A stretch of DNA of 64,000 nt from a virus (IMGVR_UViG_3300034691_000037:1-64000), one strand, 5' to 3'; counted from the stretch's first letter, positions 13,716 to 45,361 are shown. Numbers and translations are program-made. The notes: generated from the letters alone by a model not told the origin.

Positions 13716-13731
13716 GTAATGTATTGCTGTA
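13716..13731 (-). promoter_or_regulatory. Putative phage early promoter
   Basis: TACAGCAATACATTAC just downstream of a terminator. Confidence 0.65.
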
Positions 13732-40810: not shown

Positions 40811-40844
40811 CATACAGGCAGGGCTTAACTGCCCTGCCTGTATG
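40811..40844. terminator. CATA/TATG-closed hairpin
   Basis: 14-bp perfect stem catacaggcagggc/gccctgcctgtatg. Confidence 0.75.
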
Positions 40845-41598: not shown

Positions 41599-41626
41599 AT
41601 AGGGCGGGACTACCCCGCCCTGTATG
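41599..41626 (-). terminator. Hairpin ending the RKK-array/AAA unit
   Basis: agggcggg/cccgccct stem. Confidence 0.65.
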
Positions 41627-41631
41627 TATCG

Positions 41632-42738
41632 TTACTGAGAAAAGCCAACGCCGGTACGTTTGACGATACGGTCTTGGTGCATTTCGTGATAGTTCAAAGC
41701 TTTCGCCAGGGTCATGGTTTTGTCATCCATATCCACCGATTCCAGTTCCATCATGTCACGCACAGCGTAGGCCTGTTCCTTCGACAGAAGTTCGAAACGA
41801 AGCACGTCGAAGCAACGACCTGGGCGTGTCAGTGCGTCGTCGGTGCCAGAGAGCGACTCCAGGTTGGTGGAGAAGATAATCTTCACATCACGACTTACAA
41901 TGCCTTCAGCGGCGTTCAGGACAGCCGACATGTTGTCGTTACCCAGATCGCGAGACATCAGCAGACGGTCAGCGTCCTCACAGATTACAACAGACCCTGC
42001 TGGACAGCCACGGATGTAGTCGGACAACCCTGGGTTCAGCAGAACATCCTGACGGTCGATCATGCTGATCTTGTCATCCCAGCCGCGTGCGTCCATCATC
42101 TGCAAGATGAAGTTAGACTTACCGGTACCCGGAGGACCAATCAGAACGAGGACGTTAGCCCTGGACTTCGCGAAAGCTGCCCAGACCTCAGCAGGCGTAC
42201 GGCCAAAGTACGGGTAGAACAGAGTTTGGTTTTTGATCACGCCGATGGGTGGGATCGTTTCGATCGTCGTCGCAATCGCTTTGTCGTTCAGTGTCAGACG
42301 GCGCAGATGCGGTGTAACGCCTGTATCGATCAGCTCTTTGAATGTATCGCGGAAGTAGTTGACGAATGCATCGGTGCCGATGACATCGTACTTGGCCTGA
42401 GTGGCGCTGGTGCTTGGATTGACGAAGGCACCGATGATTTCATCCTCGTTGATGATGAGCCGACCCATCAGGGTGCGCATGAAGCGCAGACCTTGAGGTT
42501 TGAGGATACCGTCCAGAACGACCTTGTGAATATGCCGGTCGTTCTCGCCGCCAGTTTTGCCATGGGCGATGTCGGCGGTGAGGTGCGCTTGCTGAGCATC
42601 CCAGCCTTTGCTGGAGAAGAACAGGCGGGAGATGTCGTAGATGTTATCGCCACGTAGCAATGGAAGCTGGTCGTTCCAATGCTTGATGTTATCGAGGAGG
42701 TTTTGACTTACAGGTTCTGGAATGAAATTGAGACGCAT
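41632..42738 (-). CDS. AAA+ ATPase (BCS1-like motif set)
   Basis: GPPGTGKS, VICEDAD, VLNAAEG, IIFSTN, DDALTRPGRCFD, C-terminal GVGF. Confidence 0.92.
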   Translation of the reverse strand: MRLNFIPEPVSQNLLDNIKHWNDQLPLLRGDNIYDISRLFFSSKGWDAQQAHLTADIAHGKTGGENDRHIHKVVLDGILKPQGLRFMRTLMGRLIINEDEIIGAFVNPSTSATQAKYDVIGTDAFVNYFRDTFKELIDTGVTPHLRRLTLNDKAIATTIETIPPIGVIKNQTLFYPYFGRTPAEVWAAFAKSRANVLVLIGPPGTGKSNFILQMMDARGWDDKISMIDRQDVLLNPGLSDYIRGCPAGSVVICEDADRLLMSRDLGNDNMSAVLNAAEGIVSRDVKIIFSTNLESLSGTDDALTRPGRCFDVLRFELLSKEQAYAVRDMMELESVDMDDKTMTLAKALNYHEMHQDRIVKRTGVGFSQ

Positions 42739-42785
42739 GTTAACTCCAACAGGGTTTGTTTAAATTCGATAAATAAGGTTAGGTA

Positions 42786-42998
42786 TTACGACTTTGTAAA
42801 ATCTTTGCAACCACCTATGTGTACAGCAAGCATGACCTTATGAAACCTACATTGATCGCCATCAACGAAGTGACCTTCTGTCCGGAATGGCCGCGACGGA
42901 CACACGGCATTATCATTGTCGATTGCGCCACTGCCGCCGTCTGGCGATGAAACCCGCGGATCGGCAAATTTCTTACGGGTTATGTCCAACATATTCAA
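42786..42998 (-). CDS. RKK-family peptide 7
   Basis: MNMLDITRKK...DGG...CKDFTKS; GGAG RBS. Confidence 0.7.
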   Translation of the reverse strand: MNMLDITRKKFADPRVSSPDGGSGAIDNDNAVCPSRPFRTEGHFVDGDQCRFHKVMLAVHIGGCKDFTKS

Positions 42999-43003
42999 CT
43001 CCG

Positions 43004-43252
43004 CTAAGGCCGGGTGTAATCACAAGAATCACCATGTCCTGAAGCTCTGTTAGCTTGGTCCTTCCTATCGATTTCGGCATCGAAGATCCAGCCGGCCTTA
43101 AATAAATCTGGGTCTGTTCTATCAGCCGGGTGACCTGGCGATAACCACCACGGATCGTTATACCCAATGCCGTCAGGTATTGTGCCATAACCGCCCTCAT
43201 CGCCAGGCTTTCGTCCCCGCATGGCTTTCTTACGATGCTGATCAATCGACAT
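43004..43252 (-). CDS. RKK-family peptide 6
   Basis: MSIDQHRKKAM...DEGG...TDPD...CDYTRP. Confidence 0.75.
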   Translation of the reverse strand: MSIDQHRKKAMRGRKPGDEGGYGTIPDGIGYNDPWWLSPGHPADRTDPDLFKAGWIFDAEIDRKDQANRASGHGDSCDYTRP

Positions 43253-43475
43253 GTTCTTTATCCACAGGTCTAAAATCACCACCGCGAAAGCGCCTAGTAT
43301 CTCTATCAATTGAATTGATGAGATTTTCGGGGTCTGTCGCGAAACAACCAAGGCGCCGATTACCGTCATCTGAGAAGTGGGTGGTTACTCTTTTATTCCT
43401 AACTCCGCCCTCATCTTTACTGATCATCAGATGATCGCGAGAGAGAACTTTTTTACGGTATACGTCAGCTGCCAT
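43242..43475 (-). CDS. RKK-family peptide 5
   Basis: MAADVYRKK...DEGG...DGNR...TDPE. Confidence 0.75.
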   Translation of the reverse strand: MAADVYRKKVLSRDHLMISKDEGGVRNKRVTTHFSDDGNRRLGCFATDPENLINSIDRDTRRFRGGDFRPVDKEHVD

Positions 43476-43692
43476 GATGAGCCCTCTTAAACGGCGCGAC
43501 GCCGCACACTCTGAACGGATCGAGCTCTCTGGCGGGGGTTAAGACATCCGGATCAAGTTGACCATTGCCTTCTGTGCGATTACCGTCGTTGTAGTAATAG
43601 TCCCTCATTGTGTCAAGGGGTCTCCCACCATCGGATGATCTGCAGACCCACTCACCCGGCATTGCTTTCTTTCTGTGGTTGTCGTGACGCAT
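43465..43692 (-). CDS. RKK-family peptide 4
   Basis: MRHDNHRKKAM...DGG...DGNR...LDPD. Confidence 0.75.
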   Translation of the reverse strand: MRHDNHRKKAMPGEWVCRSSDGGRPLDTMRDYYYNDGNRTEGNGQLDPDVLTPARELDPFRVCGVAPFKRAHHGS

Positions 43693-43697
43693 GGGAG

Positions 43698-43958
43698 TTA
43701 CTCCCGAGTGTAATTGGACAAATCTATTTTTTCTCTAGCCGCTTCAGCATCTTCTAGGCGAATAATGTCAAGATCAGGTTCGGTGGTGTAGTTTCCTTCG
43801 ACAACGTGCCACTGCCTCATTACAAATTTCGCCTGATTAAAGTCACCGGAACGGTGAGTATCGTCAGTCATGGTTTCCCGACCCGTGGATTCAGAAAACC
43901 AATGACAACGAGGTATATGCATCCATTTCTTTCTATCGTTACCTATGTCCATCCACAC
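43698..43958 (-). CDS. RKK-family peptide 3
   Basis: MDIGNDRKK...PDLD...EDAE...NYTRE. Confidence 0.75.
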   Translation of the reverse strand: MWMDIGNDRKKWMHIPRCHWFSESTGRETMTDDTHRSGDFNQAKFVMRQWHVVEGNYTTEPDLDIIRLEDAEAAREKIDLSNYTRE

Positions 43959-44197
43959 TACTCCCGAGTGTAGTTCAATAAAGTGTGACGCTGGTTTACA
44001 AACTCAGCGTCCTCCTTACGAAATAGATCAAGATCGGGCTTATCGGTATACACGCCGTCGATGATGTAACCCTCTTTCATGTCAGAATAACTATAGTCAC
44101 CCATGAAGTTACTGTGGTCATCAACCGTTTCCTGCCCTAACTCCATAACCAAATAAAAGCGGGATGCAGGCTCTTTCTTTCTGTCCATATCGTGCAT
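43958..44197 (-). CDS. RKK-family peptide 2
   Basis: MHDMDRKK...PDLD...EDAE...NYTRE. Confidence 0.75.
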   Translation of the reverse strand: MHDMDRKKEPASRFYLVMELGQETVDDHSNFMGDYSYSDMKEGYIIDGVYTDKPDLDLFRKEDAEFVNQRHTLLNYTRE

Positions 44198-44213
44198 AAT
44201 GAATTTTATCTCA

Positions 44214-44405
44214 TTAAGACTTCATGTCACAAAAACTACTGAACATGTATACGGGAGTGAACCCACTCAGGAAGCCACCGCCATCCCTATCCGTAGGAAC
44301 TCGCTGATAGGGCTGCTTGTAGTCCATTATTGTCGACCTTCCACCACCATCTTCATTAAGGCTTGGCATTTCTTCTTTCTTACGTTCTATATTTAACCTG
44401 TCCAT
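44214..44405 (-). CDS. RKK-family peptide 1
   Basis: MDRLNIERKK...DGGG...CDMKS; GGAGGT RBS. Confidence 0.7.
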   Translation of the reverse strand: MDRLNIERKKEEMPSLNEDGGGRSTIMDYKQPYQRVPTDRDGGGFLSGFTPVYMFSSFCDMKS

Positions 44406-44433
44406 AGACACCTCCAGGACGTTCTCTATTACC

Positions 44434-44449
44434 ATGATGTATTGCCGTA
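44434..44449 (-). promoter_or_regulatory. Putative early promoter for the RKK array
   Basis: TACGGCAATACATCAT between the terminator and the first RBS. Confidence 0.55.
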
Positions 44450-44476
44450 GACTTTTACAGCGATCTAACCCATACG

Positions 44477-44510
44477 GCATATAGGCAGGGCGTACGCCCT
44501 GCCTATATGC
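44477..44510. terminator. Perfect 34-bp palindrome / terminator
   Basis: gcatataggcagggcgt-acgccctgcctatatgc. Confidence 0.75.
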
Positions 44511-44872: not shown

Positions 44873-45361
44873 TTATTCAGGCTGTGTGGCCACAAATACT
44901 TCAGCCGGTACGGTGAGATCGACCGCGGTGAGTCCCCGACCGTGGACCGCACCATCCGCCAAGTCAGACCGGGCTTTCATGAAGCCGATGGTGTCGTGTT
45001 GGTGGTCGTGTAGTTCATGACCACCAACTGTCTTATCGGCAGGGGTGCGTGCCGATACAACGGCGAACTCGCCACGGCGCAACCCGCCATCATCAACTGG
45101 CACCAATCCCAGATCTTCAGCCGTCTGAACGTATTTGGTCCGACCGCGCTGTAAACCCAGGTCTTCGGCAGTCTGGGCGTCCAGCATGTCCGACACTGGC
45201 TCGGATGTACCCGGAGTGCGACCATACGTCACGTTATCAGGCAACAGCGATGGGAGCAGCATGCGGTTCTTGGCATTCAGCTCTTCCAGTTGCCGATGCA
45301 TTTCGTACTGTGCGTTGTGACGTTCAACTGCTTGTTGCTTGCGGACTTTATTACGACTCAT
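44873..45361 (-). CDS. Hypothetical protein with QTAEDLGL repeat and DnaB-motif-like relic
   Basis: QTAEDLGL twice; GGLRRGEFAVVSARTPADKT. Confidence 0.7.
   Translation of the reverse strand: MSRNKVRKQQAVERHNAQYEMHRQLEELNAKNRMLLPSLLPDNVTYGRTPGTSEPVSDMLDAQTAEDLGLQRGRTKYVQTAEDLGLVPVDDGGLRRGEFAVVSARTPADKTVGGHELHDHQHDTIGFMKARSDLADGAVHGRGLTAVDLTVPAEVFVATQPE

Follow-up and report, generated by a model that had tools for sequence, protein, structure and literature searches.

Why should a phage keep seven small, mutually dissimilar proteins that agree in little beyond three residues near their start, and why should their genes lie directly before that of an AAA+ ATPase? The question is raised by a 64,000-nucleotide stretch of viral DNA (IMGVR_UViG_3300034691_000037:1-64000, hereafter the window), the first 64 kb of an 86,681-bp IMG/VR virus contig that is 35% complete. 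An original prediction, made from the DNA sequence alone, described here an array of seven packed open reading frames (ORFs), each with Arg-Lys-Lys (RKK) in its leader, followed by a Bcs1-like ATPase. We find that arrays of this kind adjoin the same ATPase gene in several lineages of uncultured jumbo phages, and that in two of these an RKK leader is fused to the ATPase itself. Tentatively, we suggest that these variable proteins are linked to the ATPase through their tag.

The array and its tag

The seven genes (p1-p7) run head to tail and tightly packed on the minus strand (42786-44405), between a 34-nucleotide palindrome and the ATPase gene (table 1). All seven predicted ORFs were found, with RKK at residues 6-10 in every case, and the window leaders can be written M-x(4-7)-R-K-K. 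When p1-p7 are aligned, the invariant columns are R, K and K together with one Gly approximately 12 residues later. Further features of the original prediction were also present: D(E)GG 6-11 residues after RKK in five of the seven proteins, a central DPD, DPE or PDLD in five, and the C-terminal tails NYTRE, DYTRP and DFTKS. Its gene calls held for the ORFs themselves, while the best starts of two were amended, to ATG 43952 for p3 and ATG 42992 for p7, both of them preceded by a Shine-Dalgarno sequence at 6-8 nucleotides.

As a background for the tag we took the six-frame ORFs of the window contig and seven comparison loci, approximately 897 in all, among which composition predicts about one chance occurrence. 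The pattern ^M.{3,9}RKK was found only in array members, in one ATPase with a fused leader and in one helicase, and chance is excluded as the source of the pattern in the array. The helicase, a protein of 702 amino acids encoded divergently to the array of locus L008 (920-3028, minus strand), starts MPAMFDFYRKK and is the sole tag-like N-terminus outside arrays and ATPases in this set, where one chance occurrence is expected.

Table 1. Features of the array-ATPase unit in the window. Ratios of non-synonymous to synonymous substitution rates (dN/dS) are against the sister phage (locus L003); HMM, hidden Markov model; aa, amino acids; nt, nucleotides.
Feature	Position	Strand	Description	Leader	Tail	dN/dS
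Palindrome	44477-44510	none	perfect, 17+17 nt, terminator-like; bounds module upstream			
Promoter-like motif GTCTACGGCAATACATCA	44435-44452	minus	approximately 30 nt upstream of p1 start; nearly invariant in L003			
p1	44214-44405	minus	63 aa; most divergent member; family HMM E 3.7e-7	MDRLNIERKK		
p2	43958-44197	minus	79 aa; p3 paralogue	MHDMDRKK	NYTRE	0.44
p3	43698-43952	minus	84 aa	MDIGNDRKK	NYTRE	
p4	43465-43692	minus	75 aa	MRHDNHRKK		0.21
p5	43242-43475	minus	77 aa; orthologues P0008 and P0011	MAADVYRKK		0.15 (dS saturated at 3.0)
p6	43004-43252	minus	82 aa	MSIDQHRKK	DYTRP	0.20
p7	42786-42992	minus	68 aa; 96% aa identity to L003; family HMM E 1.8e-13	MLDITRKK	DFTKS	0.07
Spacer	42739-42785	minus	AT-rich, 47 nt, GGAG ribosome site; between p7 and ATPase			
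ATPase	41632-42738	minus	368 aa; Bcs1-like AAA+, phiKZ gp208 / PHROG 14322 family			0.03
Hairpin	41601-41621	minus	GC-rich, 9 bp, 7 GC; after ATPase; probable unit end			

A module conserved in five lineages and fused in two

In the window and in four other lineages, all of them from uncultured phages, an RKK array immediately precedes the gene of the same ATPase. The sister phage (locus L003, an uncultivated viral genome from IMG/VR of 237 kb) has six RKK genes before an ATPase 98% identical to that of the window. Seven precede the ATPase in each of L007 (248.6-kb genome, ATPase 63% identical), L008 (307 kb, 51%) and L009 (243 kb, 47%). Seven free RKK genes are thus the number in four of the five strict-array lineages (the window, L007, L008 and L009) and six that in the sister phage; Bcs1 is heptameric, and the agreement may be a coincidence. 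Some leaders of L007 vary to RSK, RRK or RKN. Beyond the leader, the composition and occasional tails, the bodies in L007, L008 and L009 cannot be aligned with those of the window, yet an HMM built on the window clade still ranks them at the top of the background set. The gene upstream of the array encodes a protein of 86 or 94 amino acids in the window, L003 and L007; in L008 the divergent helicase stands there, and in L009 other genes. Where RKK genes could be reached they are never apart from the ATPase, while the ATPase often occurs without them. Co-occurrence of homologues with the ATPase had been put forward as the test of the association: in the lineages reached RKK genes always occur with the ATPase, with adjacency in five lineages and fusion in two.

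The fused ATPases, P0023, P0024, P0025 (451 aa) and P0031 (437 aa), come from L007 and L008. They start MKHDPLRKK (P0023), MKNDPLRKK (P0024), MKHDLLRTK (P0025) and xIHDINRKK (P0031), and the leader is followed by an extension of 70-82 amino acids in one open frame with the ATPase. This extension is conserved among three proteins that are 74-77% identical and is predicted to be disordered, with predicted local distance difference test (pLDDT) values of 30-47. Among 45 full-length ATPase homologues, four carry an RKK extension; L003 and L009 have none. A readthrough fusion of p7 and the ATPase in the window was considered and excluded, as the 47-nucleotide spacer leaves p7 and the ATPase in different frames.

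Every lineage with an array has a gene for a chimallin-type shell protein; the window's own incomplete contig is without it. A protein of genome G003 is 46% identical to phiKZ gp54, a 683-residue ORF of G004 matches PHROG 4795, the nuclear shell protein (E 9e-25), and homologues of the G004 ORF at 37-38% identity were found in G001 and G002 (38%, E 5e-130, in G001, the sister genome).

Two further groups of small genes were seen beside related ATPases. L012 and L013 (2955-3975), from 320-kb phages with an ATPase 46% identical, have four small hydrophilic genes upstream, with starts MRKGEP...ERKN and MRRDEP...GRKV; this x(8-10)-R-K pattern may be a degenerate tag. Phabio has five paralogues of 82-92 amino acids (PHABIO_302-306; L001 2025-3360) upstream of an RNA ligase and a gp208-type ATPase, three with the motif (S/D/F)EAR(V/S)EN and others with the variants YRVEN and SARNES, and these, with their different tag, may form an analogous array of small proteins. 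PHABIO_299, with QRKE...DEDNGDNG...DPD, recalls the RKK family.

The ATPase is Bcs1-like

Matches in both sequence and predicted fold bear out the original assignment of the ATPase as Bcs1-like. Residues 15-366 match the profile of PHROG 14322 (E 1e-100), to which the protein belongs; it is 38% identical to phiKZ gp208 and 47% to Phabio gp308, and scores above the cut-off for Pfam AAA (PF00004); the Walker A, Walker B and arginine motifs (GPPGTGKS, ICEDAD and RPGRC) are invariant in 32-47 homologues. Its best sequence match in the PDB is the AAA part only of Bcs1 (E 3.6e-9 with the single sequence, 8.7e-12 with a profile). For the model of a homologue (core pLDDT > 90), Foldseek placed Bcs1 and Bacillus subtilis YjoB at the top over approximately 370 columns, with template-modelling scores of only 0.3-0.4. 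There is no N-terminal membrane anchor: the N-terminus is hydrophilic, with no long hydrophobic helix in the sequence or the model, and the aligned stretch contains no aromatic pore-loop motif. The genes called 'gp208' in the Goslar, Churi and Sharanji papers are unrelated.

Bcs1 orthologues in jumbo phages have been proposed by Iyer et al. to translocate folded proteins during head assembly (PMC7824862). Bcs1 transports a folded protein (PMC10567702), while the chaperone YjoB is chambered and specific to its substrate (PMC9565160). Both belong to a class of chambered AAA+ proteins that work on folded cargo instead of threading chains.

The array changes by cassettes

The body of p1 is missing in L003 and in contigs of runs X3 (landfill) and X4 (factory). 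At the X3 joint, position 44386 is connected to 44183, these being the codons that immediately precede RKK in p1 and p2, and the first gene of X3 is a chimera in which the p1 leader is followed by the body of p2. In p3 and p5 the cores have been replaced by diverged sequence of the same length, with breakpoints at the tag and the C-terminal tail. For p3 a diverged allele of the core is present in L003, X3 and X4 (39% amino acid identity), and the saturated dS of p5 (3.0) indicates allele replacement. The array evolves by gain, loss and replacement of cassettes, with the conserved ends acting as recombination joints.

What the tag may do

The explanation that we favour, with due caution, is that RKK is a short linear docking or address motif that would couple variable, disordered proteins to the adjoining Bcs1-like ATPase. 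As a chambered enzyme of the Bcs1/YjoB type, the ATPase would have the tagged proteins either as its clients or as interchangeable adaptors. Array and ATPase make up a single module that is conserved in jumbo phages with a chimallin gene; its expression is probably driven by a promoter of early type, within bounds set by two hairpins. One tagged unit has in some lineages become the N-terminal extension of the ATPase, and the array diversifies by gain, loss and replacement of cassettes with joints at the tag codons. We arrive at coupling because the tag is conserved at the protein level on approximately 35 otherwise dissimilar microproteins, because adjacency to the ATPase persists through deep divergence and fusion is occasional, and because the ATPase is of the Bcs1/YjoB type. 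The physical contact between tag and ATPase, its direction (client or adaptor), the early timing and the biological target are the inferred parts of this scheme.

Several observations weigh against coupling. The cultured phages phiKZ, Phabio, PS119XW and GAP32 encode the ATPase amid unrelated genes, with neither RKK genes nor the extension; the ATPase family extends far beyond the RKK family and so can do without RKK proteins. In phiKZ, a transposon insertion in orf208, a homologue of the ATPase gene, is viable (bioRxiv 10.1101/2025.11.23.690004), so this homologue is dispensable in the laboratory. That the ATPase can itself carry the tag is somewhat easier to reconcile with a shared address than with a degron, and neither a structure nor an interface could be predicted for the small proteins. 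The spacer before the ATPase gene is fully conserved (see below), which suggests that transcription reading through from the array may not be all that the ATPase relies on. Finally, contigs from a peat metatranscriptome (run X2) that match the unit speak for presence in an RNA library only, and may reflect DNA carry-over.

Some of these observations would be accommodated if the tag were an address read by another receptor, with the small proteins and any fused ATPase bound for one destination and the ATPase a co-located helper and not the reader, an alternative that we regard as rather unlikely but the strongest of the rivals. Candidate receptors are the phage-nucleus shell or import machinery, the early infection vesicle, the capsid, ribosomes and nucleic acid. 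A shared address predicts that the ATPase itself should be tagged, as it is in two lineages; a chimallin-type shell protein is found in all array lineages, phiKZ-like phages have the ATPase without RKK genes, and the helicase beside the L008 array starts x8-RKK, though one such occurrence is expected by chance. However, strict adjacency to the ATPase over 47-98% identity is left unexplained, because other proteins with the same destination should carry the tag too, and the family HMM finds no other tagged ORF in the 237-kb sister genome. Moreover, to our knowledge no linear signal for import into phage nuclei has been published.

It is unlikely, in our estimation, that the array is an ordinary accessory hot spot of early host-takeover or anti-defence genes whose adjacency to the ATPase is simply inherited, with the tag serving the stability or activity of each protein. 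The rapid turnover described above, the lack of relatives outside a few phages, the position among many small early-type genes and an ATPase that stays conserved (dN/dS 0.03) while the array varies are all as such a hot spot would have them. On the other hand, approximately 35 proteins that otherwise cannot be aligned share three invariant residues at a set distance from their first residue, which argues for a common partner. Position and gene number (6-7) are kept across lineages with differing flanks, which is not usual for hot spots, and the in-frame fusion to the ATPase in two lineages has no explanation on these terms.

A bolder and quite improbable extension joins translocase and address: M-x(3-8)-RKK would be the first linear address of nucleus-forming phages, read by a Bcs1-like translocase that moves or anchors a changing set of disordered effectors, and in some lineages itself, to a compartment built by the phage (shell, early vesicle or capsid). 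Within this scheme, seven-gene arrays and a heptameric Bcs1 might reflect one tagged subunit per ring position.

The module bears on two matters in nucleus-forming jumbo phages, whose rules for protein sorting are largely obscure and whose Bcs1-like ATPases have no assigned role. The tag offers a concrete handle that can be mutated (RKK to AAA), together with a candidate motor. Should the ATPase prove to be the reader, it would show an adaptor or client logic that is new for non-threading AAA+ proteins; should the tag be an address, phage cell biology would gain a new targeting signal. Besides, the array illustrates clearly how cassettes are shuffled in nature at a short coding motif that is conserved.

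One divergent family of hydrophilic microproteins

According to the original prediction the small proteins are a single diverged family, conserved at the ends and variable in between, and all-against-all profile similarity had been set beforehand as the test of this. Pairwise BLAST within the array gave a clear relationship for p2 and p3 (blastp E 5e-16) and weak ones for p4/p5, p4/p6, p2/p4 and p1/p7. Profile-profile comparison with hhalign, in which orthologues were added to the window subfamilies, gave significant similarity: the p2/p3 group matched the p6 group over the full length (E 4.6e-6), p4 matched the p5 group (E 2.2e-5) and p2/p3 matched p5 (E 1.1e-3), while between p6 and p5 the leader alone aligned. 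The C-terminal D/N-aromatic-T-x-x end is kept by part of the family.

A profile search of 1.84 billion representative proteins yielded nine true relatives, all of 68-99 amino acids and with the same leader; two further matches were rejected as repeat-protein artefacts. A word-indexed search returned the same small circle of relatives. The family HMM matched seven genes in the 86.7-kb window contig and six in the 237-kb sister genome, array genes only, and nothing in phiKZ or Phabio. Neither Pfam nor PHROGs gave a match for any of the small proteins, and searches of 50,697 phage records with p2 and p6 (tblastn) or with the array region (megablast) returned none. A metagenome scan found no contig beyond the IMG/VR one, and an ESM Atlas look-up of p2 gave scores of 0.76 at best and no lead. 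By these searches, relatives appear to be confined to a few uncultured jumbo phages.

The proteins are extremely hydrophilic, with grand average of hydropathicity values of -0.5 to -1.7, 12% Asp, 10% Arg, 13% Gly and Pro together, and net charges of -17 to +3. An AlphaFold model of p2 from 21 family rows reached a pLDDT of 50 and showed no fold; the small proteins are probably largely disordered.

The original prediction had also raised leader-core precursors in the style of bacteriocins or ribosomally synthesized and post-translationally modified peptides, cut after a double Gly approximately 20 residues in. The D(E)GG found 6-11 residues past RKK in five window proteins is what suggested this, and we now consider it very improbable. 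A single Gly is invariant, and GG is missing in p2, p3 and most members from L007, L008 and L009, so it is not conserved across the wider family. No peptidase (C39 included), transporter or modifying enzyme stands beside the array in any lineage, and no member matches a Pfam or PHROG family.

Coding status and conservation of the tag as protein

Codon comparisons with the sister phage gave dN/dS values of 0.07-0.44 for p2 and p4-p7 (dS for p3 was not computable), which indicates that p1-p7 are real genes under purifying selection. Across 36 leaders from the five lineages the Arg of the tag is encoded by CGT, CGC, CGA, CGG and AGA, from which it follows that the protein tag is what has been conserved and not a word in the nucleic acid. 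Likewise, the tail is kept in p6 and p7 through different codons (ACC CGG versus ACA AAG) and so is a protein feature too. A secondary constraint on the tag codons at the nucleotide level is possible: the first Lys is AAG in most of the 36 leaders, and AGA encodes the tag Arg in three window leaders (44175-44182, 43926-43934 and 43666-43674), while it is rare in this phage (3 of 150 Arg codons in long genes).

That the ORFs are chance frames or remnants around a nucleic-acid signal AAGAAA is next to impossible: these codon preferences and the p2 and p3 tail codons CGG GAG, which serve also as the ribosome site of the next gene, would suit it, but dN/dS is well below 1, the tag Arg uses five synonymous codons, the tails persist as protein through different codons, and each array gene has its own Shine-Dalgarno sequence and start.

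Unit boundaries and control elements

The perfect, terminator-like palindrome predicted before the array was confirmed, and in L003 two of its arm positions are changed in a compensatory manner that keeps the pairing. Likewise as predicted, a scan for terminator-like structures found no hairpin of more than 5 bp between this palindrome and the hairpin at 41601-41621. For the array's own copy of the promoter motif the outcome was mixed: a motif is present, as a near copy only. GTCTACGGCAATACATCA resembles the intergenic ACATTAC sites at 13722, 22673, 36755 and 55184, most closely that at 13722, and by this likeness may be a promoter of early type. AT-rich, phage-specific early-promoter motifs occur in jumbo phages that encode RNA polymerase (PMC7598289), and GTCTACGGCAATACATCA fits their description.

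The spacer between p7 and the ATPase is identical to that of L003 at 47 of 47 positions, while dS of the flanking genes is approximately 0.3 (neighbouring synonymous sites differ by approximately 25-30%). The chance of full identity at such divergence is of the order of 1e-6, and the spacer probably contains a conserved control element (a promoter, operator or RNA site). The ATPase may therefore be controlled separately, beside any eight-gene transcript of the kind raised in the original prediction.

The X2 contigs are 100% identical to the window over the ATPase, p1-p4 and p6. They give no cover over p7 (42743-43008) and part of p5, and one ends at 42742, four nucleotides before the ATPase start; as contigs from an RNA library cannot show transcript starts or absence, we conclude nothing from these gaps or from this end.

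Related palindromic hairpins stand at 40811-40844, 41601-41627 and 44477-44510, with arms ATA(C/T)AGGCAGGGC and GCCCTGCCT(G/A)TAT. Their 3' arms end (T/G)TATG, which we take to contain the four-letter late-promoter core reported for phiKZ, and the hairpins might serve as terminator and start site at once. Upstream of the module, a gene for a protein of 162 amino acids (44873-45361) contains a tandem internal duplication (QTAEDLGL twice) and differs from its relatives in L003, X3 and X4 by a 120-nucleotide indel (44911-45032).

Comparison with known systems

Literature on phiKZ gp208, jumbo-phage Bcs1 and arrays of disordered small proteins yielded no description of an RKK-tagged array. By analogy, the nearest concept would be the internal-protein locus of T4 with its capsid targeting sequence. 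The internal proteins of the T-even phages (IPI, IPII, IPIII and Alt) are encoded by tandem polymorphic genes with only a short N-terminal address in common, and their cassettes are shuffled with joints in the leader-coding sequence. The two loci are thus alike in their tandem polymorphic genes, shared short leader and recombination at the leader. They differ in most other respects. The T4 capsid targeting sequence (MKTYQEFIAE-like) has no similarity to the leaders M-x(3-8)-RKK, and the prohead-protease site at the end of the T4 leader (hydrophobic-x-Glu) has no counterpart, as no conserved Glu or S/A/G-x-E follows the RKK tag. S/A/G-x-E sites were considered as a family feature and rejected, being present in some members only (p2, p3 and p6). 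The RKK array is probably early-positioned, whereas the T4 genes lie in the head-gene cluster; the RKK bodies are predicted to be disordered, unlike the T4 internal proteins; and the RKK array is linked to, and sometimes fused with, an AAA+ ATPase, whereas the T4 genes have no linked ATPase.

Systems of AAA+ adaptors and degrons offer a purely conceptual likeness. In ClpX with SspB-type systems, a single AAA+ machine recognizes short terminal motifs on unrelated proteins. The RKK module does not resemble them in sequence and, unlike ClpX-SspB, is without a partner protease and has an ATPase of the non-threading Bcs1 type.

For the ATPase itself, the best sequence and fold matches are to Bcs1 and YjoB, at low template-modelling scores for the fold, and it has Walker A and B and the RPGR arginine motif. 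Mitochondrial Bcs1 has an N-terminal transmembrane anchor, whereas the window ATPase, like YjoB, does not. Members of the phiKZ gp208 / PHROG 14322 family in cultured phages differ from the window ATPase in being without RKK genes and without an RKK extension. No partnership with a family of tagged microproteins is known for Bcs1 or YjoB, whereas the window ATPase gene adjoins the genes of such a family.

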